Shown here: positions 7,206 to 49,699 of the stretch, in pieces
Layout: each line of letters begins with the position of its first letter
Numbering within the stretch: the stretch's first letter is position 1
Source of the DNA: Eledone cirrhosa
Lineage: Eukaryota
Assembly (NCBI GenBank): GCA_964016885.1
Contig: OZ024752.1
Span: 47,058,001 to 47,122,000, forward strand
Length of the DNA: 64,000 nucleotides
Direction of reading: 5' to 3'
Made by a program: the position numbers and the translations under genes
The notes under the pieces: model-generated
The model's input: only the letters and a program-made list of their open reading frames with translations
Database searches by the model: none
Told to the model about the DNA's origin: nothing

Positions 7206-8329
7206 CATACACACATACAGGACTGTGAAAGTAGTTGAGTATGTGTGATGTCCGAACACATATCCTCCGACTATCTTACTCTCCACCTCTTGGTCCTGGT
7301 CGACATGATGGAGAATACATTGCCCTGGAGGACAGCGAGGGAGACACGCTGGAACACTCACACCACCTCACTGGGCTTGCACCTGTGGACAGCCAACTCT
7401 GTTCCAATATCAGTGAGCAGGGATGTGGTTTGAGGACCAAGAACACTGGAAGTCTCCACAGCTCTACCACAAACCTATCAGGGAGCAGCCGAGACTTGGA
7501 CAGTTTGTCCTCTTTGGTCTGGCGGACAGCAGAGCCTAGGCTGGTAGCCAAACACTTTCTTCTTACCAAAACATGGTCTTTGTTTTTTATTCTAAGTTCT
7601 GTTTCCACAGTATGAGTGGGTGTCTTCTGTAGCTCTTCCACTGATTCAGTTATAAGCTTTCTGGCCTTTAAACACTTGTTATACTGAATCTTTTGGTTGA
7701 GTTAGTAGCTTGAATTATTTATTCAATGGATTCTACTAACTACTCTTACAAAATATCTGTTTTTTGTTTTAATTTATTTCATTGTTTGTTCAGCAAGAGA
7801 AGGGTAGTGTACCCTTTTCAGAGCCTCCAAGAGTGTTAAGAGCATGTTATCCTTAAGTCAGAGAGCTGGTCTAAATGCTTGCAATAGAGTCAACTTTGCT
7901 AAATATATGTTAAAAAAAGATAATTCTCACTACTGTGTTTCAATTGTTTATTGTTTTGATCAATATTGATTTATTAAGTTTAATAATTGATACCTGTAAA
8001 TTCTAAAGATTTGCAGTGTTTTATTTTCAGACATTATTTTACCATATTTTTGTGAAGAAAGTTAATATAAACATATATTGTCTCTTGTTTTCACATATTT
8101 TTAACCCTTTTGTCTGAAACTGCCTTTAGTTCTGTGTTATAAAGCTTCTTATTTTTAAGTGTTATATTTCTCCTCTTTTTTTCTTTATCATCATCTTCTT
8201 CTTCTCCTTGAGAGAGAGAGAGAGAGGGGGGGGGGGTCGGGGTAGAGTCCTCAAACACTCCTTCCAGTGGCTCCCGTCAGAAGTAACCAACTCCAATTGA
8301 TCCAGTTGGATCCCCAAGTGGGACCAGAT

Positions 8330-8530
8330 TTTGTCTCAGCTCATTGATGCTTTGCCGTTCATGTATATCACTGTTACACATCCATCAGAGTATGCATGCC
8401 TCATTTCGTTCCAATCTTCAGCACACAAAGCCCAAGTCTTCCATGCAGCATTGCCATTTGTATACATGCACCATACAAATCTATTTTCACTCTGAGAGAA
8501 AGAAACTTTTTGGTAGTAGCTCCTGGAAAT
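8330..8530 (-). mobile_element. Degenerate RTE LINE fragment
   Basis: Nucleotide similarity to the RTE copy at ~35345-35580 (ctgttacacatccatc..gcatgca..ttcgtt, ccatgca.cat). Confidence 0.6.
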
Positions 8531-9380
8531 TTTTCCAGCTAGTCTTTAATTTGGCCCTTCAGGTAACAGAAGCTATCAACTACATCTAGGGGGCCTAGCT
8601 AAACATTAGACAGGGCTTGTTTCATGCGAGTTCTTGCTGCTCACTACTCCTGGGCGTCTGTCACATACAAAGCCTACATTCTTTGTCAGCCTGCCTGAGA
8701 TCCTGCTACACCTCCTGTTATAGTTTGTACATAAGATTGAATTTCTATCTACTCATTTCCTCCATACCAAGTTGTTTTCCTTTTTACTTACTAGGAATTT
8801 AGTCTTTGCCAAGTTGACTCTGAGGCCTTCGGATTCCAGATTTTGCTTTCATGTCTGGAATTTTTTCTCTAGTTCTGCCACAGACTTGGCTATGAAGACT
8901 AGATGGTTGGCATATTTTCTCTAGTTCTGCCACAGACTTGGCTATGAGGACTAGATGGTTGGCATATAGGAGTTACTGTGGGCAGTTAGACTTAAACTCC
9001 TAGATTCAACAGGTGGGGGCTAAGGACAGAACCCTAGTGGACCCCCACCTGCACTTGAAATTCATCCCTATATTCATTGTGAACTCTAACCTTACTGAAT
9101 GCACCTCTGTATATGGGTTGTATCCCTAACCCTAGCCCTAATGTGTTATACTAATAAATCCTTTGAACATCAGAGGCAGTGTCTTGGCAGTTGGGGGGGG
9201 GGGGGGGGAATAAGGTGACAAAAATGTTAAGAAAACAAAGTATTTGATATCAATATTGGACATGTATTTGTTGCCTTCGTTTTGTCTTTAAATTTGTGTA
9301 AAAACAGGACAAAATAATCAATATATTTATAAAGTTTTATTACAAAAAGAATTTTATTATGTTTTTTATGTTCCTTTCAG

Positions 9381-9497
9381 ACTGGACTAAATGTTGCGAG
9401 GATTGTTGAAATCCCACCCGTGGCAATTATGCCAAACTTCCTAGTACAGCGTTATGTTCTGCAGCCATTCAGATATCAGACAGGTGGAACTATTCTG
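9381..9497 (+). CDS. HDAC11: HDAC11-like histone deacetylase, internal exon (first recognised in window)
   Basis: ttcctttcAG acceptor and GTAAGG donor. The 117 nt encode TGLNVARIVEIPPVAIMPNFLVQRYVLQPFRYQTGGTIL, matching the HDAC11 EIPP..PNFLVQR.VL.P.R.QTGGTI motif. Confidence 0.93.
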
Positions 9498-9710
9498 GTA
9501 AGGTTAACTATATTGTGCTTGTTTTGTTTGGTTGTTGTTGTTTTTTTTTGTTTTTTTTGGGGGGGGGTGGGGAGTTATTTAGTCAGGGATAAATGAGCAA
9601 TGCTCATGAAAGTTTTCAGGGCCTCTAAAACTAGTGAGTGATAGACTAGAAGATATGCTCAAACAGTAGTTCAGGTTCGAATGTTTGCAATAAAATGGCT
9701 TCCTCTAAAG

Positions 9711-13580: not shown

Positions 13581-13646
13581 ATTATATGATTATGTTAAAT
13601 GAAATATCAATGAAAGTTGTTGCTTTTCTTGAATCTATTTATACAG

Positions 13647-13827
13647 GGAGTAGTTAAACGAGATTATATTGTGTTTGAAGCTGTGAGATCTCGTAATATT
13701 CCTATAATGATGTTAACCAGTGGTGGCTACATGAGAAGTAATGCTCGCATCATTGCTAATTCTATTCTCAATCTACATAAAAGTCAACTTATTGACTGTG
13801 AAGACGCAAGACATTATCAATCAATAG
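13647..13827 (+). CDS. HDAC11: HDAC11-like exon with SGGY catalytic Tyr motif
   Basis: atacAG acceptor and GTAAGA donor; GVVKRDYIVFEAVRSRNIPIMMLTSGGYMRSNARIIANSILNL...QSI plus 1 nt. Confidence 0.95.
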
Positions 13828-13939
13828 GTAAGAACTCTATTGTTATAGATCAAACAAAACAGTCATCATGTCCACTTTGCATGTTGACATGGGTTGGACA
13901 AGTTGTTATTGTCACAGTCAGTTCTTATTTTGAGTTGTA

Positions 13940-14311
13940 CAAAGTGAAACCTACTACAGTCAGTAGGCACCCCTAACAAAATACACCCCCGTACCACTAC
14001 CCCCACCCCATCCACACCACCTCTTTCAATGTAAAGATTTGTTGGTACCACAACATCCAGTCCGAAACAAATGAGGTCGTGTAGGTGTCACAACAAAAAA
14101 ACACACAGTCCACGCTGTAATGTGGCCGTGTAGGCAACACGGTAAAAACCTCCCAGACCCACACTATAAACGTGGTTGGTGTTAGGAAGGGCATCCAGCT
14201 GTAGAAAACCCGCCAGACAGTCGTATACGAGCAAGACAACGACTCTTGCTTCAAGTAGGAAAACTCCCATCCAAACCCATGCAAGCGTGGAAGATGGACG
14301 TTAAATGATGA
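13940..14311 (+). mobile_element. RTE LINE 3'-UTR-type element
   Basis: Closely similar to 59720-60100, where it follows RTE coding remnants. Contains GGTTGGTGTTAGGAAGGGCATCCAGC and ends TTAAATGATGA. Confidence 0.75.
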
Positions 14312-18321: not shown

Positions 18322-18896
18322 TGTCAGGTTGCTCTTCTGCACTACTAGTAACATGTAAACCAGTACATGTGCATGGTCGGATCATTGGCAACTAAACCGG
18401 TAGCCCCTCCAAATTTGCTTGGTGAGGAGTGTTATTTTGGACACCCTGTGGGATGAAAAACAAAAGGCAGTGGAACTCAGGGCATCCAATAAAGCTCTTT
18501 TTTTTTGTGGGGCAAGAAACCCCTAGACTTCATTAAGACATCTCTTTAGTAGGTCACTCTGATATAAAACCTACGACTTCATTTGCATCCAATGATGTAG
18601 ATCAGTTCTTCTTTTTGGGTAAATGGGATTAACCCCGTGCAAAGCTTTTCCTCACTTAAAAAAGCTTCAAGCACAGGCATTGCTTGATATGTGACATTTT
18701 TGTATTGCTGGTCATAGGTAAGTCTCTAGCTGGACTAAAAAACAGGATTTAAGTTACGTGGACATTTGGTCTGGATTCAAGTAGAGACACAAGGTAGGTT
18801 CGTTTGCTTCCCACCACAGTTTTTGCAACATGCATTCTAATATATATGTGTGTGTGTATGTGTATTAGTAATTCAAACCCACTTGCATTGTATGGC

Positions 18897-21345
18897 TTCC
18901 TAAACATACCCAGAGGGCGTAAGAAGCAGTTTTAGGGTGTATATGTACCATAGGGTCTCCATCTGAATCCTGGTCAGAGGGCTAAAGTAATGGATCTTCT
19001 ACAGCCAGCTAAGGCCTAGTCACTAGAAGCAGTCTTAGGGCATATACTTCACATAACATATCCTACGGCCAGCTAAACTCTGGTTAATGCCAGGTTAGAG
19101 GGTGAAAGAAGCTGTTTTGGAGCATATGATTCCCATAGGATCTACATCTGGCTAAAGCTTTGTCAATGCCAAGTTAGAGGGCAAAATAAGCAGTTTTAGG
19201 GTATATACTTCCCATATAACCTTCTACGGCCAGCTAAACCTTGATCAATGCCAAGTTAGAGGACAAAATAAGCAGTTTTAGGGTATATACTTCCCATTTG
19301 ACCTTCTACGGCCAGCTAAACCTTGATCAATGCCAAGTTAGAGGGCAAAATAAGCAGTTTTAGGGTATATACTTCCCATTTGACCTACGGCCAGCTAAAC
19401 CTTGATCAATGCCAAGTTAGAGGGCAAAATAAGCAGTTTTAGGGTATATACTTCCCATATAACCTTCTACGGCCAGCTAAACCTTGATCAATGCCAAGTT
19501 AGAGGACAAAATAAGCAGTTTTAGGGTATATACTTCCCATATAACCTTCTACGGCCAGCTAAACCTTGATCAATGCCAAGTTAGAGGACAAAATAAGCAG
19601 TTTTAGGGTATATACTTCCCATTTGACCTTCTACGGCCAGCTAAACCTTGATCAATGCCAAGTTAGAGGGCAAAATAAGCAGTTTTAGGGTATATACTTC
19701 CCATTTGACCTACGGCCAGCTAAACCTTGATCAATGCCAAGTTAGAGGGCAAAATAAGCAGTTTTAGGGTATATACTTCCCATATAACCTTCTACGGCCA
19801 GCTAAACCTTGATCAATGCCAAGTTAGAGGACAAAATAAGCAGTTTTAGGGTATATACTTCCCATATAACCTTCTACGGCCAGCTAAACCTTGATCAATG
19901 CCAAGTTAGAGGACAAAATAAGCAGTTTTAGGGTATATACTTCCCATATAACCTTCTACGGCCAGCTAAACCTTGATCAATGCCAAGTTAGAGGACAAAA
20001 TAAGCAGTTTTAGGGTATATACTTCCCATATAACCTTCTACGGCCAGCTAAACCTTGATCAATGCCAAGTTAGAGGACAAAATAAGCAGTTTTAGGGTAT
20101 ATACTTCCCATATAACCTTCTACGGCCAGCTAAACCTTGATCAATGCCAAAATAAGCAGTTTTAGGGTATATACTTCCCATATAACCTTCTACGGCCAGC
20201 TAAACCTTGATCAATGCCAAAATAAGCAGTTTTAGGGTATATACTTCCCATATAACCTTCTACGGCCAGCTAAACCTTGATCAATGCCAAGTTAGAGGAC
20301 AAAATAAGCAGTTTTAGGGTATATACTTCCCATATGACCTACTACGGTCAGCTAAACCTTGGTCAATGCCACAGACCAATGTCATGTATAACTGAGGGGT
20401 GAGTCACACTAAAGTGTACATTATATAGTTTTATTATTACCTTTATATTGTAAATGTTACTCAACAGAACATTATGCAGAATTAGTGGGAACCCTAATAT
20501 ACATCAATCAGTTTCCCATAGCTGGGGCAGTCAGCTGTTGGGGTGCTATTCTATATGTTTTACTGTGTCTCTATGACATATTTAGAAATATTTGACAACG
20601 CCCATCTCCGCTCCAAGTGTCCCACCCCTCACTAAGTTCAGCATGCCACCATCTGGGTGTTGTTGAGAACCAATGTACTGGTGTCTCCATCATGACAGTT
20701 CAGCAAGCCTTAGAAATATTTGATAGCCAGCTAAACCTTGTTCAGTGCCCGGTTTTAGGGTGTATATGTCCCATACGATCTCCTACAACCAGCTAAACCC
20801 TGGTCACCACAAGCTTAGAGGATGAAAGAAGCAGTTTTAGGGCATATACTCCACATAGCATCTCCATGGTCAATAGCTAGCTAAACCATTGTCAATACCA
20901 AATAATTTCCATGGGTCCTTTATGTTATGAGGCAAGTCTTGCAATATATATGTGTGTGGGAGTACACTTATAGTTGTCCTTTGAAATTTGAAGATGACAA
21001 AGTTGTTCATCAATTGTGGATCCTTTGGTAACAGCAGGCGAAATGAACAGTTTACGGGTCTAATCTTCTCATAGGATCCTTTACGGCCAGCTAACTCATC
21101 GACAATGCCAGGTGAGAGGGTGATTGAAACAGTTTAAGGACGTATACTTCCCATAGTATCTCCTAAAAAATGGTCAGTGCTAGCCAGCTAAACTATAATC
21201 AGTGTCTGCTTAGAGGTCGAAAGAAGCAGTTTTAGAGTGTATACTTCCCATAGTATCTCCTATGGGCACTGAAACCCAGGCTAGTAATGAATCTCCTACG
21301 GCCAGCTAAACCCTGGTCGCTGCAACCATAAAGGGCGAAAGGAGT
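18897..21345. repeat. 82-bp satellite: homogeneous core ~19170-20370 with degenerate flanking units
   Basis: Unit TACGGCCAGCTAAACCTTGATCAATGCCAAGTTAGAGGACAAAATAAGCAGTTTTAGGGTATATACTTCCCATATAACCTTC, with 79- and 70-bp deletion variants. Confidence 0.95.
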
Positions 21346-21405
21346 CATTTATGTAGCTGGACTGTCGTCTATACGGAGGTGACTGATTATTCACTGAAAA
21401 AAATA

Positions 21406-21834
21406 TATAAACGCAATCTAAGAAGACACTGGGCCTCTATATGCTCTTCCTTGCTGTCAGTCAACATACTTCTAAATTTGTTACTGTTTGAAGGGTCTTT
21501 TAACTTGCATACTCGTCTCCTGAGTCGAGGTCGATAAAGAAAGTACCAGTCTAGTACTGGGAACGATTCTTCTTCTATCCTATCTGGAAGAAATCTGTTG
21601 TATACTTCTTTCTGTGTAGTTAGTAGCCAACACACTCAAGTGTTCTTTTAAAAGAAAAAAAACTTTATTTCATGTTGCTCCAGTACACCCAGTTAGGGCA
21701 TCCTATCCAAAGAACATAGAATAAACATTATATATATACTAAATTAGATATAATCAATAATTTATACTTATAAGACGGACAGTTTGCATTTTTTATTTCC
21801 AGAAACAAGTATATTTACTTACGTATTAATTGTT
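21406..21834 (+). repeat. Extra direct copy of palindrome-arm segment ~23688-24112
   Basis: TATAAACGCAATCTAAG...ACGTATTAATTGTT occurs here, at ~23688-24112, and inverted at ~34187-34612. It produces the duplicated ORFs 21387-21635 and 23673-23912. Confidence 0.92.
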
Positions 21835-23517
21835 GATGGACCAGGTCATGAAAGTAACAGAAAGAGTTATAGCACAGTTGATTAGGGACCGGGTGAAACT
21901 AGAGATGCAATTTGGGTTTGTACCAGGAAGAGGCACCACTGATGCCCTCTTCCTTGTCAGGCAGTTACAGGAAAAGTACCTTGCTAAAAGTAAGCCACTC
22001 TACCTGGCATTTGTCGACCTTGAGAAAGCCTTTGACAGAGTTCCACGTGCTGTAATCTGGTGGGCTCTTAGAAAACTAGGAGTAGATGAATGGCTTGTGA
22101 AAGCGGTACAAGCCATGTATAGGGGAGCAGTCAGCAAAGTTAGGATTAGCAATGAGTATAGCGAGGAATTTAGCGTACAGGTTGGGGTCCACCAGGGCTC
22201 TGTTCTTAGCCCCCTCCTGTTTATCATAGTCCTGCAGGCAATAACGGAGGAGTTTAAGACCAGATGCCCATGGGAACTCCTGTATGCTGATGACCTCGCA
22301 CTTATAGCTGAATCTATGGTAGAACTAGAGAAGAAATTCCAAACTTGGAAGCAGGGACTAGAAAGAAAGGGTCTCAAAGTCAACATGACAAAGACTAAGG
22401 TCCTTGTAAGTAGACGAGAAAACAGAACCCAGATCCCCTCAGGGAAATGGCCTTGCTCAGTATGTAGGAAAGGTGTAGGTAGGAACTCCATTCTCTGCCC
22501 CAAATGCAAACAATGGGTACACAAGAGATGTAGCGGGATCTCAGGAAGCTTAATTAAGAATGTAGGCTTCACATGCAGCAGCTGTGCTGGGACAGCAAGC
22601 AGGGAACAAGTACCACCAATCTCTGGGAGGGCTCTGTAGAAACAGTAGACAGCTTCTGCTACCTAGGTGACCGAATTAGCAGTGGAGGTGGGTGTTCAGA
22701 AAGTACAATAACTAGGATAAGAACGGGATGGAAGAAGTTTAGGGAATTACTACCACTGCTAGCTGCAAAAGGCTTCTCCCTCAAAATGAAAGGCAGACTG
22801 TATGATGCGTGTATCCGAACAGCGATGTTGCATGGTAGTGAGACCTGGGCGCTGAAGGTGGAAGACTTATGTAGATTAGAGAGAAACGAAGCCTGCATGC
22901 TCCAATGGATGTGTAACAGTAATATACGCAAACGACAAAGCATAAATGAATTGAGAGAGAGACTGAGCATAAGAGGAATCAAATGCTGTGTGCAGGAGAG
23001 GCGGTTGCGCTGGTATGGACATGTGATGCATATGAAAGATGACAGCTGCATAAAAAGGTGCAGAGCACTAGAAGTCGATGGAAACCGCGGAGTGGGGAGA
23101 CCCAAGATGAGGTGATAAAAGCCGACCTTACCCAATTACACCTCTCAAAGGCGATGACACACGACCGTGACCTCTGGCATCACGCAGTAATACAGAGTAC
23201 CTGACCTCCCATGAGTACAAGCTGAAGCATATAGACAATATGCCCCCACACCCCCTACTGCAAGGTGGTCGTGGAGGTGCCACGGCAAAAAAGCACCCAG
23301 CCCACACTGTAAAGTGGACATGTAGGCGCCACGAAAAAGCACCCAGCACTCACTGTAAATGAGGTTGGTGTTAGGAAGGGCATCCAGCTGTAGAAATCAA
23401 GCCAAATCAGTTCCTGTATGAGCAAGGCATAGTCAGCCGACCAGACACTGCCCACAACAGGACAACTCGTCTAACCCATGCTAGCGTGGAAGAATAGACG
23501 TAAAACGGTGATGATGA
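21834..23517 (+). mobile_element. 5'-truncated, frameshifted RTE-clade LINE (RT, PHD-like Cys cluster, 3' UTR)
   Basis: RT motifs QFGF, FVDLEKAFDRVPR, GVHQGSVLSPLLF and YADD. Frameshift near 22610, C-terminal RLRWYGHV, and an (ATG)n tail. Confidence 0.95.
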
Positions 23518-24154
23518 AAGAGACGAACACATGTATATAACTATGTGTGTTCAAATCACAAGAGACAGAAACCGTGAGGGTGAAGAAAATACTGATTAAA
23601 TTGATTCCAGTGGATTACTGGTATTTTATTTAATGAGAATTAAAATTTACTGTTCGTCTAGCTTGCTGTCAGTCAACATACTTCTAAATATAAACGCAAT
23701 CTAAGCAGACACTGGGCCTCTATATGCTCTTCCTTGTTGTCAGTCAACATACTTCTAAATTTGTTACTGTTTGAAGGGTCTTTTAACTTGCATACTCGTC
23801 TCCTGAGTCGATAAAGAAAGTACCAGTCTAGTACTGGGAACGATTCTTCTTCTATCCTATCTGGAAGAAATCTGTTGTATACTTCTTTCTGTGTAGTTAG
23901 TAGCCAACACACTCAAGTGTTCTTTTAAAAGAAAAAAAACTTTATTTCATGTTGCTCCAGTACACCCAGTTAGGGCATCCTATCCAAAGAACATAGAATA
24001 AACATTATATATATACTAAATTAGATATAATCAATAATTTATACTTATAAGACGGACGGTTTGCATTTTTTATTTCCAGAAACAAGTATATTTACTTACG
24101 TATTAATTGTTATGTATAAATGTACCAAATACTAGTAGTTTCTAAATTAATTTA

Positions 24155-24600
24155 TATATAGAAACGGAATGAGAGTGAGGTAACACCCGGAATATATTTT
24201 GAGGCGTGCCATCTCGCTTTCGTTCCGTTTCTATTTTTTTTTTTAAAAACAATAAATAAAATTTTACCTATAAGTATGACTAATTTGCTTAGTAGAATTG
24301 CGGCTTCGCGCGGCGATGCGCGTAGCGGTTCGGACTTCGTTTGCCTACTTATGTATGGTGTGACCATTCTATGTGTCTGAAGATCGAATCGTTACGAGGT
24401 CTTCGTGGCTTATGCAGCTGGGACTATTTGCAGGCTGGCTACTTGCTGGCCTGCGTTCCCGGACCTCGCGAACAATCGATTTTTGGTGTATATTTAAATT
24501 AGAGTTATCGCCCTTTATTTAGAGTTACTTCCCCTTAATTTAATTGACTTCCGGTTTTTTGAAAAAAGATCATTTGGAATATCGTGTTGTGAGAGGTATG
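24155..24600 (+). promoter_or_regulatory. CpG-rich promoter-like block (mirror ~33700-34143)
   Basis: High CpG density in an otherwise CpG-poor window (GCGGCTTCGCGCGGCGATGCGCGTAGCGG). ETS-type ACTTCCGG at ~24547, followed by a GAG|GTATGT donor at 24596. Confidence 0.45.
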
Positions 24601-25559
24601 TAATGTTTCTTTGCTGTGTACACACATCTTTATTTCATGTTGCTCCAGTACACCCAGAACAAACATTGTATATATATATACTAGATTTAGGTTTAATCAA
24701 TAATTATATGACATTATTTCCAGAAACAACTATATTTACTTACATATTAATTGTTCGGTATATATATACTAAATACTAGTAGTTTCTAAATTAATTTATT
24801 TGTAATGTTTTCTTTGCCATGCACACATACATCTAAGAAACTAAAATTCTCTAGATAAAAAAAATGTATATATATATGTATACATACATCAAACTTCTCT
24901 CTACACACATACAGATACATTCTGTTATATATCTATAAACTTTACTATTTATTGAATTGAACCGGTGACATAAAAATACGTTTACCGTCTTCGTTAATAT
25001 AGGTAGAGACGTTTATAAACGCCATTCACATATCTTCTTCTAAGAAACATGTATATACAGCTACATTTTTTATTATCTTTATTTCTTTCACACATAACGA
25101 AGCATGGCAGCTTTATTTGTTGCACTACTTGAAATGATTATTTAAACGATAGTTTAGCTACTAGTGAGGTATTTCTAATACATATACGCTCACAAAAAAC
25201 AGGGTGTAGGACATTTTTATTATCTTCATATACATTCTTAGTTTCTTTAGAAACTTTATATAGATTCTTAGTTTCTTTCGATAGTTTAGTTTATTTATTA
25301 GTGATGTTGTATTTCTAATACATATACACACACACATAGCTCGCAAAAAGAAGGTGTAGGACATTTTTATTATCTTCATATACATTCTTAGTTTCTTTCG
25401 ATAGTTTATTTATTAGTGATGTATTTCTAACACACATAGCTCACAAAAACAAGAGATACCAAAAAAAAATGTAGTCACAGAAAAGCAACTTGAAATAAAA
25501 TGTCACGTAAAGCCCGGCCTAAGAATCGAACTCAAGACGGTGATTTCACATAAATACTT

Positions 25560-25597
25560 TGCGCATGCGCACTTGTGTCTACATTTGTTGCGCATGC
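25560..25597. promoter_or_regulatory. NRF1-type motifs (mirror 32707-32744)
   Basis: Perfect TGCGCATGCGCA at 25560-25571 and a partial TGCGCATGC at ~25589. Confidence 0.45.
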
Positions 25598-26384
25598 TTA
25601 CCCGGGGTACCTGTTGAGAGAAATAAAATAGTTGCTTGGACAACTTCATATTTTCAAACCTGAATAAAAAACGTTAAAAACTTGGATTTTACTATTTATA
25701 AAAAGGTAAAGTAAAGCTTTTATTGTATGTTTAATTCCTTCCATAATGTCAGCAATAATTAATTAAAGTATAGTTTTGTATTAATAATACACCTTCCACG
25801 GTCATATGAAATAGAATTTAGCGTATTTTTATTTAAAGTGGTAAATAATATATTTCTAGTTCCCTTCATGATATCCTCGTGTTTTGGAGGACTTTCTCAG
25901 CATGTTCCTGTCATAGGTACGACAGATTTCACACTGGTACTGTCACTAGTTTCTATATACATCATGTCTGGAAGGGCCTCCGTGTTGTGATGTGGAGCAA
26001 CCTTCTCAATGACTTGTCTTCCAGTTTCTTTTCCCTAACCTTTTGTCTACTCTGACTGGGGTGTAGTGTCAGTATTTTGTTTTTATTAGATACTGCTCAA
26101 TAAATGTTTATATAATGTCAATATCTTTTCATGACATTGTTTGAGATTTTCTATATTAAATATGTTTATACCCCTGTAAATGTCAGACATACTTTACCAG
26201 TGAAATAATTAAACTGATAGGGTTTCATTGTTAATTTCTGATGGAGTTTACCATGACAGAAGTGACCCGTATCTCTTTCGGTTCTAGCTACTTGAAAGGT
26301 GTCCACCACATGATGTTTGCTATATTATGGTTAGAAATATTAACCAGACTCTTTTGAGATCTGTCATCTTTGGTTTACTACATC

Positions 26385-28586
26385 TACATTCTTAGTTTCT
26401 TTAGAAACTTTATATAGACTCTTAGTTTCTTTCTATACATTCTCAGTTTCTTTAGAAACTATATAGACTCTTAGTTTCTTTCTTTAGAATCTTTGTATAG
26501 ATTCTTAGTTTCTTTCTTTAGAATCTTTATATACATTCTTAGTTTCTTTAGAAACTTTATATAGACTCTTAGTTTCTTTCTTTAGAATCTTTGTATACAT
26601 TCTTAGTTTCTTTAGAAACTTTGTATACATTCTTAGTTTCTTTAGAAACTTTATATAGATTCTTAGTTTCTTTCTTTAGAATCTTTATATACATTCTTAG
26701 TTTCTTTCTTACGAATCTTTATATAGATTCTTAGTTTCTTTAGAAACTTTATATAGACTCTTAGTTTCTTTCTTTAGAATCTTTGTATACATTCTTAGTT
26801 TCTTTAGAATCTTTGTATTCATTCTTAGTTTCTTTAGAAACTTTATATAGATTCTTTCTTACGAATCTTTATATACATTCTTAGTTTCTTTAGAAACTTT
26901 ATATACATTCCTAGTTTCTTTAGAAACTTTATATAGACTCTCAGTTTCTTTCTTTAGAATCTTTGTATACATTCTTAGTTTCTTTAGAAACTTTGTATAC
27001 ATTCTTAGTTTCTTTAGAAACTTTATATAGATTCTTTCTTTAGAATCTTTGTATACATTCTTAGTTTCTTTAGAATCTTTATATAGATTCTTAGTTTCTT
27101 TAGAAACTTTATATAGATTCTTACTTTAGAATCTTTGTATACATTCTTAATTTCTTTAGAAACTTTATTTAGACTCTTAGTTTCTTTAGAATCTTTGTAT
27201 ACATTCTTAGTTTCTTTAGAAACTTTATATAGATTCTTACTTTAGAATCTTTGTATACATTCTTAATTTCTTTAGAAACTTTATATAGACTCTTAGTTTC
27301 TTTCTTACGAATCTTTATATAGATTCTTAGTTTCTTTAGAAACTTTATATAGACTCTTAGTTTCTTTCTTTAGAATCTTTGTATACATTCTTAGTTTCTT
27401 TAGAAACTTTATATAGATTCTTACTTTAGAATCTTTATATAGATTCTTAGTTTCTTTAGAAACTTTATATAGACTCTTAGTTTCTTTCTTACGAATCTTC
27501 ATATAGATTCTTAGTTTCTTTAGAAACTTTATATAGACTCTTAGTTTCTTTCTTTAGAATCTTTGTATACATTCTTAGTTTCTTTAGAAACTTTATATAG
27601 ATTCTTACTTTAGAATCTTTATATAGATTCTTAGTTTCCTTAGAAACTTTATATAGACTCTTAGTTTCTTTCTTACGAATCTTCATATAGATTCTTAGTT
27701 TCTTTAGAAACTTTATATAGACTCTTAGTTTCTTTCTTTAGAATCTTTGTATACATTCTTAGTTTCTTTAGAAACTTTATATAGATTCTTAGTTTCTTTC
27801 TTACGAATCTTTATATAGATTCTTAGTTTCTTTAGAAACTTTATATAGATTCTTACTTTAGAATCTTTATATAGATTCTTAGTTTCTTTAGAAACTTTAT
27901 ATAGACTCTTAGTTTCTTTAGAAACTTTATATAGACTCTTAGTTTCTTTCTTTAGAATCTTTGTATAGATTCTTAGTTTCTTTCTTTAGAATCTTTGTAT
28001 ACATTCTTAGTTTCTTTAGAAACTTTATATAGATTCTTACTTTAGAATCTTTATATAGATTCTTAGTTTCTTTAGAAACTTTATATAGACTCTTAGTTTC
28101 TTTCTTACGAATCTTCATATAGATTCTTAGTTTCTTTAGAAACTTTATATAGTTTCTTTCTTTAGAATCTTTGTATACATTCTTAGTTTCTTTAGAAACT
28201 TTATATAGACTCTTAGTTTCTTTCTTTAGAATCTTTGTATACATTCTTAGTTTCTTTAGAAACTTTATATAGATTCTTACTTTAGAATCTTTATATAGAT
28301 TCTTAGTTTCTTTAGAAACTTTATATAGACTCTTAGTTTCTTTCTTTAGAATCTTTGTATACATTCTTAGTTTCTTTGGAAACTTTATATAGATTCTTAG
28401 TTTCTTTCTTACGAATCTTTATATAGATTCTTTAGAAACTTTATATAGATTCTTAGTTTCTTTAGAAACTTTATATAGACTCTTAGTTTCTTTAGAAACT
28501 TTATATAGACTCTTAGTTTCTTTCTTTAGAAACTTTATATAGATTCTTACTTTAGAATCTTTATATAGATTCTTACGAATCTTCAT
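26385..28586 (-). repeat. Modular satellite, left arm (~2.2 kb)
   Basis: Reverse complement of 26/30/34-bp AAGAATCTATATAAAG(TTTC/ATTC)TAAAG.. modules. A local 184-bp period is visible (ORFs at 27305 and 27489). Confidence 0.96.
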
Positions 28587-28830
28587 GCTTAGTTACCTCC
28601 CTTTATTCAGTTATGTAATGTTTTCCTATAATAAAATTGGAAGAATTAATAAAGTTTAATATTCTTTTTATTGACAACGTTAAATGACTTTCTCTTTACA
28701 GATGTCCAGCCTTCGGGGTTATTTGCTGCTGTCCAACGTGGGAATACGAAGTTTCTGTTAATAAAGAAAGTTAACATGTCATATATGAATTGTGTTCAGT
28801 TTATTTAATATAAGACACTTTATAGATTTT

Positions 28831-31800
28831 AAGAATCTATATAAAGTTTCTAAAGAAACTAAGAATCTATATGAAGATTCGTAAGAAAGAAACTAAGAGT
28901 CTATATAAAGTTTCTAAAGAAATTAAGAATGTATACAAAGATTCTAAAGTAAGAATCTATATAAAGATTCTAAAGAAAGAATCTATATAAAGTTTCTAAA
29001 GAAACTAAGAATGTATACAAAGAGTCTATATAAAGTTTCTAAAGAAACTAAGAATCTATATAAAGATTCGTAAGAGAGAATCTATATAAAGTTTCTAAAG
29101 AAACTAAGAATGTATACAAAGATTCTAAAGAAAGAAACTATATAAAGTTTCTAAAGTAAGAATCTATATAAAGTTTCTAAAGAAACTAAGAATGTATACA
29201 AAGAGTCTATATAAAGTTTCTAAAGAAACTAAGAATCTATATAAAGATTCGTAAGAGAGAATCTATATAAAGTTTCTAAAGAAACTAAGAATGTATACAA
29301 AGATTCTAAAGAAAGAAACTAAGAATCTATATAAAGATTCGTAAGAAAGAAACTAAGAGTCTATATAAAGTTTCTAAAGAAACTAAGAATCTATATAAAG
29401 ATTCTAAAGTAAGAATCTATATAAAGTTTCTAAAGAAACTAAGAATCTATATAAAGTTTCTAAAGAAACTAAGAATGTATACAAAGATTCTAAAGAAAGA
29501 AACTAAGAGTCTATATAAAGTTTCTAAAGAAACTAAGAATCTATATGAAGATTCGTAAGAAAGAAACTAAGAGTCTATATAAAGTTTCTAAAGAAACTAA
29601 GAATCTATATGAAGATTCGTAAGAAAGAAACTAAGAGTCTATATAAAGTTTCTAAAGAAATTAAGAATGTATACAAAGATTCTAAAGTAAGAATCTATAT
29701 AAAGATTCGTAAGAAAGAAACTAAGAGTCTATATAAAGTTTCTAAAGAAACTAAGAATGTATACAAAGATTCTAAAGAAAGAAACTAAGAGTCTATATAA
29801 AGTTTCTAAAGAAACTAAGAATCTATATAAAGATTCTAAAGTAAGAATCTATATAAAGTTTCTAAAGAAACTAAGAATCTATATAAAGATTCGTAAGAAA
29901 GAAATTAAGAGTCTATATAAAGTTTCTAAAGAAACTAAGAATCTATATAAAGTTTCTAAAGAAACTAAGAATGTATACAAAGATTCTAAAGAAAGAAACT
30001 AAGAGTCTATATAAAGTTTCTAAAGAAATTAAGAATGTATACAAAGAATCTATATAAAGATTCGTAAGAAAGAAACTAAGAGTCTATATAAAGTTTCTAA
30101 AGAAACTAAGAATCTATATAAAGATTCTAAAGAAAGAATCTATATAAAGTTTCTAAAGAAACTAAGAATGTATACAAAGATTCTAAAGAAAGAAACTAAG
30201 AGTCTATATAAAGTTTCTAAAGAAACTGAGAATCTATATAAAGATTCTAAAGTAAGAATCTATATAAAGTTTCTAAAGAAACTAAGAATGTATACAAAGA
30301 TTCTAAAGAAAGAAACTAAGAATCTATATAAAGTTTCTAAAGAAACTAAGAATCTATATGAAGATTCGTAAGAAAGAAACTAAGAGTCTATATAAAGTTT
30401 CTAAAGAAACTAAGAATCTATATAAAGATTCTAAAGTAAGAATCTATATAAAGTTTCTAAAGAAACTAAGAATGTATACAAAGATTCTAAAGAAAGAAAC
30501 TAAGAGTCTATATAAAGTTTCGAAAGAAACTAAGAGTCTATATGAAGATTCGTAAGAAAGAAACTAAGAATCTATATAAAGATTCTAAAGTAAGAAGCTA
30601 TATAAAGTTTCTAAAGAAACTAAGAATGTATACAAAGATTCTAAAGAAAGAAACTAAGAATCTATATAAAGATTCGTAAGAAAGAAACTAAGAGTCTATA
30701 TAAAGTTTCTAAAGAAACTAAGAATCTATATAAAGATTCTAAAGTAAGAATCTATATAAAGTTTCTAAAGAAACTAAGAATCTATATAAAGATTCGTAAG
30801 AAAGAAACTAAGAGTCTATATAAAGTTTCTAAAGAAACTAAGAATCTATATAAAGATTCTAAAGTAAGAATCTATATAAAGTTTCTAAAGAAACTAAGAA
30901 TGTATACAAAGATTCTAAAGAAAGAAACTAAGAGTCTATATAAAGTTTCTAAAGAAACCAAGAATCTATATGAAGATTCGTAAGAAAGAAACTAAGAGTC
31001 TATATAAAGTTTCTAAAGAAACTAAGAATCTATATAAAGATTCTAAAGTAAGAATCTACATAAAGTTTCTAAAGAAACTAAGAATCTATATAAAGTTTCT
31101 AAAGAAACTAAGAATCTATATAAAGATTCGTAAGAAAGAAACTAAGAGTCTATATAAAGTTTCTAAAGAAATTAAGAATGTATACAAAGTTTCTAAAGAA
31201 ATTAAGAATGTATACAAAGATTCTAAAGAAAGAAACTAAGAATCTATATAAAGATTCGTAAGAAAGAAACTAAGAGTCTATATAAAGTTTCTAAAGAAAC
31301 TAAGAATCTATATAAAGATTCTAAAGTAAGAATCTATATAAAGTTTCTAAAGAAACAAAGAGTCTATATAAAGTTTCTAAAGAAACTAAGAATCTATATA
31401 AAGATTCGTAAGAAAGAAACTAAGAGTCTATATAAAGTTTCTAAAGAAATTAAGAATGTATACAAAGTTTCTAAAGAAATTAAGAATGTATACAAAGATT
31501 CTAAAGTAAGAATCTATATAAAGATTCGTAAGAAAGAAACTAAGAGTCTATATAAAGTTTCTAAAGAAACTAAGAATCTATATAAAGATTCGTAAGAAAG
31601 AAACTAAGAATGTATATAAAGATTCTAAAGAAAGAAACTAAGAATCTATATAAAGTTTCTAAAGAAACTAAGAATGTATACAAAGTTTCTAAAGAAACTA
31701 AGAATGTATACAAAGATTCTAAAGAAAGAAACTAAGAGTCTATATAAAGTTTCTAAAGAAACTAAGAATGTATATAAAGATTCTAAAGAAAGAAACTAAG

Positions 31801-31919
31801 AATCTATACAAAGATTCTAAAGAAAGAAACTAAGAGTCTATATAGTTTCTAAAGAAACTGAGAATGTATAGAAAGAAACTAAGAGTCTATATAAAGTTTC
31901 TAAAGAAACTAAGAATGTA
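28831..31919 (+). repeat. Modular satellite, right arm (~3.1 kb)
   Basis: AAGAATCTATATAAAGTTTCTAAAGAAACT (30), ..GATTCTAAAGAAAGAAACT or ..GATTCGTAAGAAAGAAACT (34) and ..GATTCTAAAGT (26) modules in shuffled order. Confidence 0.96.
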
Positions 31920-34781
31920 GATGTAGTAAACCAAAGATGACAGATCTCAAAAGAGTCTGGTTAATATTTATAACCATAATATAGCAAACATCATGTGGTG
32001 GACACCTTTCAAGTAGCTAGAACCGAAAGAGATACGGGTCACTTCTGTCATGGTAAACTCCATCAGAAATTAACAATGAAACCCTATCAGTTTAATTATT
32101 TCACTGGTAAAGTATGTCTGACATTTACAGGGGTATAAACATATTTAATATAGAAAATCTCAAACAATGTCATGAAAAGATATTGACATTATATAAACAT
32201 TTATTGAGCAGTATCTAATAAAAACAAAATACTGACACTACACCCCAGTCAGAGTAGACAAAAGGTTAGGGAAAAGAAACTGGAAGACAAGTCATTGAGA
32301 AGGTTGCTCCACATCACAACACGGAGGCCCTTCCAGACATGATGTATATAGAAACTAGTGACAGTACCAGTGTGAAATCTGTCGTACCTATGACAGGAAC
32401 ATGCTGAGAAAGTCCTCCAAAACACGAGGATATCATGAAGGGAACTAGAAATATATTATTTACCACTTTAAATAAAAATACGCTAAATTCTATTTCATAT
32501 GACCGTGGAAGGTGTATTATTAATACAAAACTATACTTTAATTAATTATTGCTGACATTATGGAAGGAATTAAACATAAAATAAAAGCTTTACTTTACCT
32601 TTTTATAAATAGTAAAATCCAAGTTTTTAACGTTTTTTATTCAGGTTTGAAAATATGAAGTTGTCCAAGCAACTATTTTATTTCTCTCAACAGGTACCCC
32701 GGGTAAGCATGCGCAACAAATGTAGACACAAGTGCGCATGCGCAAAGTATTTATGTGAAATCACCGTCTTGAGTTCGATTCTTAGGCCGGGCTTTACGTG
32801 ACATTTTATTTCAAGTTGCTTTTCTGTGACTACATTTTTTTTTGGTATCTCTTGTTTTTGTGAGCTATGTGTGTTAGAAATACATCACTAATAAATAAAC
32901 TATCGAAAGAAACTAAGAATGTATATGAAGATAATAAAAATGTCCTACACCTTCTTTTTGCGAGCTATGTGTGTGTGTATATGTATTAGAAATATAACAT
33001 CACTAATAAATAAACTAAACTATCGAAAGAATTTATATAAAGTTTCTAAGAGAAGAAACTAAGAATGTATATGAAAATAATAAAAATGTCCTACACCCTG
33101 TTTTTTGTGAGCGTATATGTATTAGAAACACCTCACTAGTAGCTAAACTATCGTTTAAATAATCACTTCAAGTAGTGCAACAAATAAAGCTGCCATGCTT
33201 CGTTATGTGTGAAAGAAATAAAGATAATAAAAAATGTAGCTGTATATACATGTTTCTTAGAAGAAGATATGTGAATGGCGTTTATAAACGTCTCTACCTA
33301 TATTAACGAAGACGGTAAACGTATTTTTATGTCACCGGTTCAATTCAATAAATAGTAAAGTTTATAGATATATAACAGAATGTATCTGTATGTGTGTAGA
33401 GAGAAGTTTGATGTATGTATACATATATATATACATTTTTTTTATCTAGAGAATTTTAGTTTCTTAGATGTATGTGTGCACGGCAAAGAAAACATTACAA
33501 ATAAATTAATTTAGAAACTACTAGTATTTAGTATATATATACCGAACAATTAATATGTAAGTAAATATAGTTGTTTCTGGAAATAATGTCATATAATTAT
33601 TGATTAAACCTAAATCTAGTATATATATATACAATGTTTGTTCTGGGTGTACTGGAGCAACATGAAATAAAGATGTGTGTACACAGCAAAGAAACATTAC
33701 ATACCTCTCACAACACGATATTCCAAATGATCTTTTTTCAAAAAACCGGAAGTCAATTAAATTAAGGGGAAGTAACTCTAAATAAAGGGCGATAACTCTA
33801 ATTTAAATATACACCAAAAATCGATTGTTCGCGAGGTCCGGGAACGCAGGCCAGCAAGTAGCCAGCCTGCAAATAGTCCCAGCTGCATAAGCCACGAAGA
33901 CCTCGTAACGATTCGATCTTCAGACACATAGAATGGTCACACCATACATAAGTAGGCAAACGAAGTCCGAACCGCTACGCGCATCGCCGCGCGAAGCCGC
34001 AATTCTACTAAGCAAATTAGTCATACTTATAGGTAAAATTTTATTTATTGTTTTAAAAAAAAAATAGAAACGGAACGAAAGCGAGATGGCACGCCTCAAA
34101 ATATATTCCGGGTGTTACCTCACTCTCATTCCGTTTCTATATATAAATTAATTTAGAAACTACTAGTATTTAGTACATTTATACATAACAATTAATACGT
34201 AAGTAAATATACTTGTTTCTGGAAATAAAAAATGCAAACCGTCCGTCTTATAAGTATAAATTATTGATTATATCTAATTTAGTATATATATAATGTTTAT
34301 TCTATGTTCTTTGGATAGGATGCCCTAACTGGGTGTACTGGAGCAACATGAAATAAAGTTTTTTTTCTTTTAAAAGAACACTTGAGTGTGTTGGCTGCTA
34401 ACTACACAGAAAGAAGTATACAACAGATTTCTTCCAGAGAAGGATAGGATAGAATAAGAATCGTTCCCGGTACTTTCTTTATCGACCTTGACTCAGGAGA
34501 CGAGTATGCAAGTTAAAAGACCCTTCAAACAGTAACAAATTTAGAAGTATGTTGACTGACAACAAGGAAGAGCATATAGAGGCCCAGTGTCTGCTTAGAT
34601 TGCGTTTATATTTAGAAGTATGTTGACTGACAGCAAGCTAGACGAACAGTAAATTTTAATTCTCATTAAATAAAATACCAGTAATCCACTGGAATCAATT
34701 TAATCAATATTTTCTTCACCCTCACGGTTTCTGTCTCTTGTGATTTGAACACACATAGTTATATACATGTGTTCGTCTCTT

Positions 34782-36715
34782 TCATCATCACCGTTTTACG
34801 TCTATTCTTCCACGCTAGCATGGGTTAGACGAGTTGTCCTGTTGTGGGCAGTGTCTGGTCGGCTGACCATGCCTTGCTCATACAGGAACTGATTTGGCTT
34901 GATTTCTACAGCTGGATGCCCTTCCTAACACCAACCTCATTTACAGTGAGTGCTGGGTGCTTTTTCGTGGCGCCTACATGTCCACTTTACAGTGTGGGCT
35001 GGGTGCTTTTTTGCCGTGGCACCTCCACGACCACCCTGCAGTAGGGGGTGTGGGGGCATATTGTCTATATGCTTCAGCTTGTACTCATGGGAGGTCAGGT
35101 ACTCTGTATTACTGCGTGATGCCAGAGGTCACGGTCGTGTGTCATCGCCTTTGAGGTGTAATTGGGTAAGGTCGGCTTTTATCACCTCATCTTGGGTCTC
35201 CCCACTCCGCGGTTTCCATCGACTTCTAGTGCTCTGCACCTTTTTATGCAGCTGTCATCCTTCATACGCATCACATGTCCATACCAGCGCAACCGCCTCT
35301 CCTGCACACAGCATTTGATTCCTCTTATGCTCAGTCTCTCTCTCAATTCATTTATGCTTTGTCGTTTGCGTATATTACTGTTACACATCCATCGGAGCAT
35401 GCAGGCTTCGTTTCTCTCTAATCTACGTAAGTCTTCCACCTTCAGCGCCCAGGTCTCACTACCATGCAACATCGCTGTTCGGATACACGCATCATACAGT
35501 CTGCCTTTCATTTTGAGGGAGAAGCCTTTTGCAGCTAGCAGTGGTAGTAATTCCCTAAACTTCTTCCATCCCGTTCTTATCCTAGTTATTGTACTTTCTG
35601 AACACCCACCTCCACTGCTAATTCGGTCACCTAGGTAGCAGAAGCTGTCTACTGTTTCCACAGAGCCCTCCCAGAGATTGGTGGTACTTGTTCCCTGCTT
35701 GCTGTCCCAGCACAGCTGCTGCATGTGAAGCCTACATTCTTAATTAAGCTTCCTGAGATCCCGCTACATCTCTTGTGTACCCATTGTTTGCATTTGGGGC
35801 AGAGAATGGAGTTCCTACCTACACCTTTCCTACATACTGAGCAAGGCCATTTCCCTGAGGGGATCTGGGTTCTGTTTTCTCGTCTACTTACAAGGACCTT
35901 AGTCTTTGTCATGTTGACTTTGAGACCCTTTCTTTCTAGTTTCTGCTTCCAAGTTTGGAATTTCTTCTCTAGTTCTACCATAGATTCAGCTAAAAGTGCG
36001 AGGTCATCAGCATACAGGAGTTCCCATGGGCATCTGGTCTTAAACTCCTCCGTTATTGCCTGCAGGACTATGATAAACAGGAGGGGGCTAAGAACAGAGC
36101 CCTGGTGGACCCCAACCTGTACGCTAAATTCCTCGCTATACTCATTGCTAATCCTAACTTTGCTGACTGCTCCCCTATACATGGCTTGTACCGCTTTCAC
36201 AAGCCATTCATCTACTCCTAGTTTTCTAAGAGCCCACCAGATTACAGCACGTGGAACTCTGTCAAAGGCTTTCTCAAGGTCGACAAATGCCAGGTAGAGT
36301 GGCTTACTTTTAGCAAGGTACTTTTCCTGTAACTGCCTGACAAGGAAGAGGGCATCAGTGGTGTCTCTTCCTGGTACAAACCCAAATTGCATCTCTAGTT
36401 TCACCCGGTCCCTAATCAACTGTGCTATAACTCTTTCTGTTACTTTCATGACCTGGTCCATCAGCTTTATACCTCTATAGTTTCCTCTATCTAGTGCATC
36501 ACCTTTACCTTTGTAGCAGTTGACAATGAGATGCTACTGCACCAATCTTTTGGTATGACACCTTCTAGTATTACCTGGTTAACAATATGTGTGACCTACA
36601 GACCCAGATGCCTTCAGCATCTCGGCAGCTATACCCGATGGACCGGTTGCCTTCCCCATCTTCATATCTTTGATTGCCTTACTTACTACGTTGCTGCTGG
36701 CCCCTCTATAGGGTC
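34782..36715 (-). mobile_element. RTE-clade LINE, mirror copy, ~250 bp longer at its 5' end
   Basis: Same RT ORFs and same frameshift as 21834-23517. It continues past the palindrome edge into KAIKDMKMGKATGPSGIAAEMLKA. Confidence 0.95.
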
Positions 36716-36918
36716 TACTATATATATATGTATAGATGACAGCTATATCAAAAAGTACAGGGCACTTGGAGTTGAAGGAAACTATGGAAGTGGAAGACCC
36801 AGGAAAATTTGGGATCAAGTGATAAAAGCTGACTTTGCACAATTAAACCTTTTGGGGACATGCTGTACTGCAGAAGACCAGCCCTCCAATGTACACAGGA
36901 TGAAGCAAACATCTAGAG

Positions 36919-39615: not shown

Positions 39616-39774
39616 TCATTTTCCTAAACTGAACGATAATTTTGGTCGAGCATTTTTCTTATTTAAGATCCTATCTTGCTCTTGTTTCACCCGTTTTCTC
39701 TCTTCTTCCTCCATTCTTTGTTTCTCTTCTAAAATTTTTCGCTGTTCTTCAACTAGCTTCAACTGTTCTTCAGC
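39616..39774 (-). CDS. ARGLU1: ARGLU1 terminal coding exon
   Basis: tttcAG acceptor; AEEQLKLVEEQRKILEEKQRMEEEERKRVKQEQDRILNKKNARPKLSFSLGK*, with the conserved RPKLSFSL end. Confidence 0.96.
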   Translation of the reverse strand, partial: AEEQLKLVEEQRKILEEKQRMEEEERKRVKQEQDRILNKKNARPKLSFSLGK

Positions 39775-40156
39775 CTGAAAAGAAGAAGAAAAAAAAGTTA
39801 AATGAGAAATACTCTCAAACAATATTTCTTCATTAATTAGAATATATATTGACAGTCGATTCCCAGACCTCATTTGCTTATGCTTCCATTGGTCTTTCCA
39901 ATTGCTAATACTATCTGTTGGTTGCAAAACGAGCAACATGAAATTAAGTGTCTTGCTCAAGGACATAACGCATCGCCTGGTCCGGGAATCGAAATTACGA
40001 ATCCAATCTTCTTATATATATATAACTAACAAATAGTTTAGATGCCAAGACAAGAGCAAGAATGACGGTGCCATTTTACTGACATGGCTTAAAGAGGCTG
40101 TTTGCGTAATTGCAAACGAATTGATTATTATTAATATTCGAAAAACTCAGATTACA

Positions 40157-47700: not shown

Positions 47701-48446
47701 TTGTTAAATTATCTTCTGAACACTAGCTTAATAATGAAAAGGTTAGTGATATTACTAAATCCTTCCAAATTCTTAATTATTTTCAAAATTAATTGAGAAA
47801 GAACCATGAGCTGTGTATGATATTATTGTTAGATTTATGTTAACAAAAGAGTTAAGGTAAGAGTTGTGAATAAAATTTTCAATTATATAGTTCACATTCA
47901 GGATAAAGGGATGATCTTTTTTTTAGAATAAATACTTTTAATTATATCAACCTAGAAATAAATTATCATAGGAAATAGAGAGGGATAAGAAGTCTAAATT
48001 TAATTTCTTTCTAATAAAAAGATAACTATTTTTTCTCCCCAACTTAACATACCTTCATTTAAATTTAATAAATAAATGTGCTACCAAGTCCTAATTCCTT
48101 ATGGTTTTGGGCATCTCACGATAAAAAATTAAATAATAAATATGTCCTTTCTTTCTCTGATCAAAGAATTAATTATGAAAATGCTGGCCTAATTTAAATG
48201 TTGATTTTATATGTATTTATTTGACTCTAATAAAAAGAAAATTTCAATTAAAAGTCAAAATTTATAAGATTACCAAAACACATGTAGATTCAGGATTTGA
48301 CAGGACATTTCAAATGTTAAATTTAAAAAAAAAAAATAAAAAAAAATTTTCTGATATTATTTGGGCGGAGAGTACACCAAACTGACAAAAAGGAGGTGGG
48401 GTGGAGGCAAAGGAAATAAATAATAAAAGCTGAAACTTTGCAGTAC

Positions 48447-48672
48447 CTCTTTTTGACGTTGTGCTTCAAGTTCGGCTTGGCGTTGTCTTTCTAATTCTTC
48501 AAGCATTTGTTTCTCCATTATCCGTTTAGCTTCTTCTACCCGTCTCATCACTTCTGCTTCTATCTCATCTTTACGTTTCTCAAGCTCTTCATTAACCCTT
48601 TTAGCCACAAGCTCTTCCACACGCCTTGCTACTTCCTCTTCGATTAATTTTTCTTCCAGTTCTTTTTGTTTT
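48447..48672 (-). CDS. ARGLU1: ARGLU1 Glu-rich exon
   Basis: AG/GT bounded, 226 nt; [75 protein letters not shown]. Confidence 0.97.
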
Positions 48673-49699
48673 CTAATTAAGGTATAAAAAAAAAAAAAAA
48701 AAACAGTCTTCATAAGAAATAATGCTGAGACATCACAACCAAGGAAACAAAGAATAAAAATTAAAAATTCTCATTTAAAAACTGGTATTAATTTTATTCT
48801 AATTTATTCAAATCTGCAAATGTAATATGTTAAGTCCATCACAGTAAAAAACAATTCTCCAGAAATACCTAAAGGTAGACAGTAATTAAACAATGTAATC
48901 CTTTATATTTTTTGTATAGTCATGGTAAAAAAATAAAACAATGAAATGCTGAAAAAATGGGAACTTCAGCACTTGGGGTTTAGAAATAACAATGAAAATA
49001 AAGCCAACAGGATTTGTTATGCTGAATTAGAACCAATGGAGTGTTCAAATATTGAGTAATATAATAAAAAATCTATTGTAAGAGTAGATCTGTGAGACAA
49101 AAACAATAATTTTCATTAAGTTATGGGCTGTATGAGAAAGAATATAGCTTTATTTTTAAAAGATAATAATAAACCTGACAGAGTTAGAATAGAAAAGATC
49201 TACAAGTAGATGTACTTTAGTAATATGATCAAATTCTATTTCACGAAATTACTAAATATGTATATTTCAATGCCGTGTGTATCTGATTTAAATAGGTACA
49301 CTGTATCTCTGTGTCATAAGAAGTGAGGAAAAGAGTTGGTACCAGGAAGGGCATCTGGCCATAAAACATTACCTCCCCAAAACCCCCAATGAGGAATCGC
49401 AGGGCTAATCCTTTCTCTAGCCTGAAAATACGTGAAGATCTATTTATTCAAAATCTGTAGCTCTTTTAGAAGTCAGTATTCCTATCTTAAATACTATGTA
49501 CTCCACCCCAGACAAAATTCTGGCACACATTTGAATTAATTTCCATTTTATTTCTTCATGGTCGCTTAACAATACAATGTTACATATATAAGTAACAGAA
49601 ATACATATAAAATGCCTGCTATAAAATCAATGTCCGACAAAAACAAAACATAGTGGCCGTCTTGGTGCCAGGATAAAAAGCATCCAGTCCACATTGTAA

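Follow-up and report, generated by a model that had tools for sequence, protein, structure and literature searches.

The palindrome described here lies in a 64,000-nt window (C12:47058001-47122000; positions below are those of the window) of the 3.0-Gb genome of the octopod Eledone cirrhosa, and combines long inverted outer arms, oppositely oriented inner satellites and a short loop. On balance, we lean towards reading it as one member of a family of gene-like segments that are inverted, scattered through the genome and likely non-coding; template switches during replication, starting at short inverted repeats that belong to the family itself, would have built the palindrome without a transposase. 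The evidence, which comes from DNA sequence throughout, indicates that the C12 palindrome is real and young, and that its outer 2.2 kb is flanking DNA of a long interspersed nuclear element (LINE) that was copied in inverted orientation into the left arm, probably by a template switch.

Comparison of the window with itself by BLAST gave a single minus-strand high-scoring segment pair (HSP), which pairs positions 21834–28583 with 36463–29676. Global alignment of the outer arms (21834–26381, 4,548 bp; 31920–36463, 4,544 bp) contains 23 substitutions, 19 of which are transitions, and 7 insertions or deletions, including those at 23806–23859 and 25246–25272; the near-perfect reverse complements of roughly 4.55 kb noted in a preliminary description of this stretch are thus borne out, as are the opposite orientation and unequal length of the inner satellites (2,205 bp on the left and 3,093 bp on the right), which flank a 243-bp loop. 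Both arms hold a copy of a LINE that we take to be of the RTE type (a reverse transcriptase (RT) plus a PHD finger), and both copies match RVT_1 and PHD in Pfam. Translations of the open reading frames (ORFs) contain the frame break common to both LINE copies and all the reported arm differences (GRGTT/GRDTT, KQGLE/KQKLE and DLCRL/DLRRL). Our results support the earlier view that the LINE copies arose by duplication of DNA, not by two LINE insertions, and that arms differing at scattered sites are not a simple read fold-back. The limits first proposed for the element, 21834 and 36463, do not hold: the right LINE runs on to about 36716, family sequence reaches left to about 18760, and arm segment X has a further, overlooked copy, its third, at 21405–21834 (Table 1).

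The loop and every part of the arms outside the LINE have relatives elsewhere in the genome, at 70–90% identity in sequence searches. A family unit runs from W, which is made of 82-bp repeats, through X, a hairpin of 77 nt (HP), a CpG-rich core, an ETS-type motif, a splice donor and an intron to an acceptor exon with AATAAA sites, and W precedes X in relatives on C12, C24, C25, C13 and C15. Whole-genome counts with exact patterns, for which the reversed-pattern controls gave 0 matches, returned 41 matches for the hairpin arm, 80 and 23 for two core motifs and 108 for the loop acceptor, a 19-mer; with 63 BLAST matches in addition, the loop is not the unique sequence it was first thought to be. 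Most of the acceptor matches listed (88 of 100, out of the 108) lie on C13, C15, C20 and C21. Merging the hairpin-arm list with those of the two core motifs gave 123 distinct cores at 89 loci, most of them on C23, C20, C15, C13 and C21 and none on C1–C7; the family, which occupies the smaller chromosomes, comprises, as a lower bound, about 90 or more loci. The observed-to-expected CpG ratio of the core is 1.42 at the C12 locus and averages 1.31 over 79 copies, compared with 0.39 for the window, and no exon-2 reading frame is conserved among the copies listed of 104 distinct ones. A promoter function is probable for the CpG core, which would be unmethylated and drive short spliced non-coding RNAs. 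We found no description of the family in the literature searched, and its patterns had 0 matches in the metagenome and viral contigs scanned. The main text of an Octopus vulgaris repeat annotation (PMC13282606) uses neither ‘foldback’ nor ‘palindrom’; its supplement and repeat libraries lay outside the search, and the modules may sit there as ‘unknown’ repeats. A lone 390-bp fragment of X on C22 (C22:24078493; 8493–8881 of the fetched locus), 95% like the C12 locus, lies in a TA tract, adjoins a 320-bp inverted repeat and retains the ancestral states of both arms.

Palindromy is a trait of the family. Members on C20 form palindromes of about 3–19 kb with arms of 89–98% identity and a GC-rich, near-spacerless centre, which folds into a hairpin of roughly 200 bp that has a 3-nt loop and contains smaller hairpins (7980–8420 of one fetched locus) and was found on C20 only, plus once on C19. 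Those on C13 and C15 are asymmetric inward pairs, and on C23 palindromes of 29–33 kb occur in three of the four regions fetched; two of these have opposite 88-bp satellites around a hairpin loop of 550–630 bp, a layout like that of C12 made from a different repeat. Over the whole family, palindromes range from 3 to 33 kb, with different centres and variable ends. Neighbouring cores within 15 kb of each other outside C23 are inward in 11 cases, outward in 1 and tandem in 14, counted over copies that are related rather than independent. A related Foldback-like unit, seen at C23:22.13–22.19 Mb and at other places, consists of 88-bp tandem repeats, an inner domain, a hairpin of about 440 bp and the mirror, often beside TA tracts. 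A 23-mer of this unit has 176 exact matches (about two per unit), and the 100 listed fall on C22, C23 and C24, with one on C15; the units follow one another in tandem (on C23, 11 of them within 50 kb), and single 88-bp monomers lie near X in C23 family units.

Three pairs of paralogs have 9–19 kb in common, which in two pairs extends well beyond the family modules into flanking DNA, and members on C24 and C25 have an upstream flank in common. A tree of the cores (82 rows) clusters by chromosome, with 16 changes against 49.8 when shuffled (0/200). The family may have spread mainly within chromosomes as segmental copies of 9–19 kb, like a core duplicon. Among primate core duplicons, GOLGA8 is described as palindromic. 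For LCR16a/NPIP, a serial, interspersed and mostly intrachromosomal expansion has been described (PMC7419210). The E. cirrhosa family likewise has a common core with serial intrachromosomal expansion, copies that carry flanking DNA and solo copies on other chromosomes. In contrast to these duplicons, it is smaller (3–33 kb), no protein product was found for it and palindromy is inherent to its unit. The family thus appears to resemble a core duplicon with Foldback-like anatomy.

The junctions at C12 suggest how this copy formed. X1 is 97.9% identical to X2 and 94.7% to X3; X2 agrees with X3 at the first two diagnostic sites (approximately its first 50 bp) and with X1 at the next three, and each of the three copies has private changes. 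One base is shared where X1 meets the interior of the LINE, and the join between X and Z, the flank that separates it from the LINE, holds a 28-bp copy of X-internal sequence. LINE changes at 12 sites fall on the left arm (4), on the right arm (6) or could be assigned to neither (2), which means that both arms have aged since copying. Inverted triplications mediated by inverted repeats have a chimeric repeat at one junction and microhomology of 1–9 bp or templated insertions at the other (PMC11293582). Both a chimeric-repeat junction and a microhomology junction are present at the C12 locus, which in these and in its templated insertion is like DUP-TRP/INV-DUP structures (an inverted triplication between two duplications) and origin-dependent inverted-repeat amplification (ODIRA) (PMC11293582; PMC10766186; PMC10766183); in contrast to them, the C12 event spans 2–3 kb, is germline and is old enough to have diverged, and X alone is triplicated. 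From these junction features, we infer that inverted-triplication mechanisms acted here. A fold-back at the monomer pair around the exon would have copied the left arm rightward up to X, leaving the 28-bp templated insertion; a later switch through X homology would have copied Z and 1.7 kb of the LINE into the left arm, rejoining through the 1-bp microhomology; and both satellites would then have expanded independently.

The putative seeds for such a fold-back are visible in relatives. Among 119 family copies, 82 have satellite monomers in sense orientation upstream of the exon, 74 have antisense monomers downstream of it and 62 have both; sense-strand monomers downstream of the exon, counted as a control, occur in none of the 119. 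An exact 30-mer of the satellite unit has all of its 61 genome matches inside the C12 locus. Given this confinement and the monomer polarity in relatives, the head-to-head monomers are inherited and their expansion alone is local. The arrays of 73 and 95 units mirror each other over the outer 12 units and differ further in. A second, independent kilobase-scale expansion of a related monomer lies inside a family palindrome on C15 (1.486 Mb; 7902–9550 of the fetched locus).

Several observations weigh against the template-switch reading or the gene-like nature of the units. A donor-like motif is present in just 34 of 82 family copies, and the donor and ETS columns change nearly as much as intron columns do (6.1 and 7.1 against 7.3). 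The order of the two switches depends on three diagnostic differences, clustering of the core tree by chromosome is expected for near-copies, and on C23 outward pairs of cores within 15 kb are commoner than inward ones (5 and 2, with 1 tandem). Several family ends fade into (TA)n, in which a TA target-site duplication (TSD) would be invisible, and the 88-bp unit on C22–C24 looks closer to a classic Foldback element than the C12 palindrome does. In the reads, the junction of X1 and the LINE is absent from the rows listed over 21700–26380, which are dominated by other LINE copies, and in two runs of restriction-site-associated DNA (RAD) sequencing the right-arm letter alone appears at 25725 (48 of 48 reads). 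This last result, together with an arm divergence of 0.5%, which is within the allelic range, and with contigs of a further read run (named X1, like the segment) that have right-arm letters at 6 of the 7 inner-arm (24112–26380) diagnostic sites listed, at a depth of about 20 as in common stretches, could point to an assembly artefact, in which two haplotypes or folded reads were joined in inverted orientation. Yet that same run also has the left letter at 25725, plus private changes; a single copy with two alleles could not yield three versions of X that each have private changes, one of them chimeric; the interiors of the satellites differ all along; the sequences to either side of the palindrome are unlike each other; and relatives are palindromic likewise. 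With X present in three distinct copies, with satellites that evolved independently and with the layout seen across the family, we consider an artefact very improbable. Hardly credible is a further proposal, that the segments supply promoters and 5′ exons to clustered protein-coding genes in inverted pairs, for instance C2H2 zinc-finger genes. The CpG core, the ETS- and NRF1-type motifs, a first exon that is short and an ATG opening exon 2 would suit it, but there is no zinc-finger ORF in the family loci where these were counted, no exon-2 frame is conserved, and searches with exon 2 and the C20 centre ORF, which are weak tests, found no protein homologues. The zinc-finger-cluster idea was rejected on the distribution of PF00096, which does not follow the family chromosomes: the top 150 of 64,383 candidates, a number that together with the LINE and SINE types points to an octopod genome, are mostly on C27, C18, C26, C1 and C4, with 1 on C13, none on C15 and 1 each on C20 and C21.

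Two other accounts carry more weight. One, which we regard as doubtful, holds that the family consists of functional hairpin-RNA or microRNA genes, whose spliced RNA polymerase II transcripts would fold across the arms or at HP and be cut to small RNAs or edited by ADAR; it is compatible with an origin of the DNA by template switching. Drosophila hairpin RNAs (hpRNAs) are spliced, mRNA-like inverted repeats in multi-copy clusters and are defined by spliced transcripts and Dicer-2-dependent small interfering RNAs (PMC10317233), and the E. cirrhosa family is like them (Nmy, Tmy, hp-pncr009 and the hp-tHMG cluster) in having inverted repeats in gene-like units with splice signals, in many copies and restricted to a lineage (PMC10317233). 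The inward excess of cores outside C23 and a C20 exon that would run through a near-perfect hairpin fit this account, as does HP, for which the sense strand gives the better fold in 55 of 82 copies, with 163 G-U against 91 A-C pairs. HP itself is stable (z of −8.1) and most conserved in its 5′ arm. Signs of selection on the RNA are mostly negative, however: on the exon-sense strand of the long arms, over 12 oriented HSPs, there is no G-U bias (152 against 150, p 0.95), and 12 predicted pairs of HP show no compensatory change over 20 sequences. About three inherited positions account for the G-U excess of HP, in which the loop and the 3′ arm are conserved to the same degree. In contrast to the Drosophila genes, the family lacks a G-U strand bias and has poly(A) signals after the acceptor and before the mirror; no Rfam family reached the gathering score in 20400–29000 or at five family loci, and no target gene was found. 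The other account, which we judge unlikely, is a family of non-autonomous DNA transposons of Foldback type, with long modular terminal inverted repeats (TIRs), whose copies would insert in TA tracts, transpose over short distances and decay, the C12 copy having gained its LINE later. Foldback-structured transposons (Drosophila FB, Galileo and Tetris) have long modular inverted arms, variable internal tandem repeats and a non-coding middle. Complete Tetris copies have modular TIRs with 8–9 bp TSDs (PMC4079207), their long modular inverted arms contain internal tandem repeats, and a satellite has arisen from an arm module, as at the C12 locus (PMC4079207). The C12 palindrome has long modular inverted arms around a middle and variable-number tandem repeats in them, although these are innermost and expanded at this locus only. 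The dispersal over about 90 loci, the occurrence of solo copies on other chromosomes, the position of the C12 copy between ARGLU1 exons and a presumed HDAC11-like exon, and the classic outer-repeat layout of the 88-bp-repeat unit beside TA tracts on C22–C24 also speak for a transposon. Across 22 arm boundaries at C12 and related loci (one of them at a locus edge and one probably from an unrelated repeat pair), however, there is no common terminal sequence, boundaries fall in different modules and upstream ends vary; a TSD of at least 3 bp occurs at none, the values being 0 bp at 16, 1 bp at 5 and 2 bp at 1. The preliminary description, which had seen no transposase or TSD, agrees with window ORFs and boundary comparison at 21834 and 36463. 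Its FB-like element stands as a layout that recurs elsewhere and fails as a transposon bounded by those positions, which has no common terminus, no TSD of at least 3 bp and flanks in common; the genome-wide search it proposed recovers inverted pairs again, but no defined termini or TSDs, and the exact satellite unit only at C12. No transposase-like ORF was seen by eye at loci with listed ORFs, where no Pfam scan was made, nor was a transposase searched for genome-wide. In contrast to FB, Galileo and Tetris, the family lacks fixed termini, 8–10 bp TSDs and any transposase seen; its repeats are innermost, the C12 middle is a family exon-like module, and copies have common flanks and cluster by chromosome. 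The 88-bp units, too, have common TA flanks and several different ends, and, among the matches listed by whole-genome patterns, family modules are absent from C1–C5.

Besides the palindrome, the window contains minus-strand exons of ARGLU1 (PF15346) at 39619–40011 and 48360–48770 and a plus-strand exon at 13640–13976, presumably the last exon of an HDAC11-like gene, with no Pfam or PDB match; the two sets of exons flank the palindrome convergently. A deletion interrupts the donor LINE at its 5′ end (36533–36850), after which comes a LINE 3′ fragment in inverted orientation. Further tandem arrays have units of 48 bp (1–867), which match a 3′ region of a LINE or short interspersed nuclear element (SINE), 28 bp (3232–4439) and 54 bp (56672–56950), and the 82-bp array is family module W. 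ARAGORN found 0 tRNA-type genes.

Table 1. Features of the C12 palindrome and adjoining family sequence, in window coordinates.
Feature	Positions	Strand	Remarks
W, family upstream module	18760–21404	+	Degenerate 82-bp repeats; ends in a weakened donor-like site near 21380
Local expansion of W to satellite	19027–20371		82-bp tandem array
X1, third copy of arm segment X	21405–21834	+	Joined to LINE interior via 1-bp microhomology
Left LINE copy, begins mid-RT	21834–23517	+	Inverted copy of right flank; PF00078 and PF00628
Z, flank separating LINE and X	23518–23687	+	Ends in 28-bp templated copy (23662–23689) of X-internal sequence
X2, chimeric	23688–24111	+	Ends in acceptor-like site at about 24079
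HP, 77-nt family hairpin	24158–24234	+	24-bp stem, four G-U pairs on the plus strand
Y1, CpG-island-like core	24296–24480	+	Most conserved block of the family
Motif taken to be ETS-type (24547–24554) and splice-donor-like site (GT at 24596)	24547–24603	+	From sequence and family alignment
Intron-like inner arm	24604–26381	+	Stray satellite monomers; presumed SINE relics and presumed NRF1-type motif (25560–25571)
Left satellite	26382–28586	+	26–34 bp monomers, 73 units
Loop, family exon-2-like module	28587–28829	+	Acceptor AG at 28700–28701, then AATAAA at 28760
Right satellite	28830–31922	−	95 units; mirror symmetry with the left satellite is limited to the outer 12 monomers
Inner arm, donor, CpG core and hairpin, mirrored	31923–34186	−
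X3, putative end of older core palindrome	34187–34611	−
Z and longer, putative donor LINE copy	34612–36716	−	Mirror stops at 36463, LINE goes on

Long near-spacerless palindromes are normally unstable. This genome keeps dozens of palindromes from one modular unit, 3 to 33 kb in size and with different centres, and the family offers a natural series on the origin of Foldback-like structures and new satellites without an evident transposase. At its boldest, and in our estimation quite unlikely, the picture would be of an octopod lineage whose smaller chromosomes carry some 90 or more genes for hairpin RNAs, in which CpG-island promoters and spliced exons copy themselves as palindromes without a transposase, spawn central satellites and make long double-stranded RNA for Dicer or ADAR. 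For cephalopod small-RNA and RNA-editing data, the family is a precise list of targets. Should the units be silent, they would still represent a duplication core, clustered by chromosome and hitherto undescribed, from which rearrangements are likely to arise.

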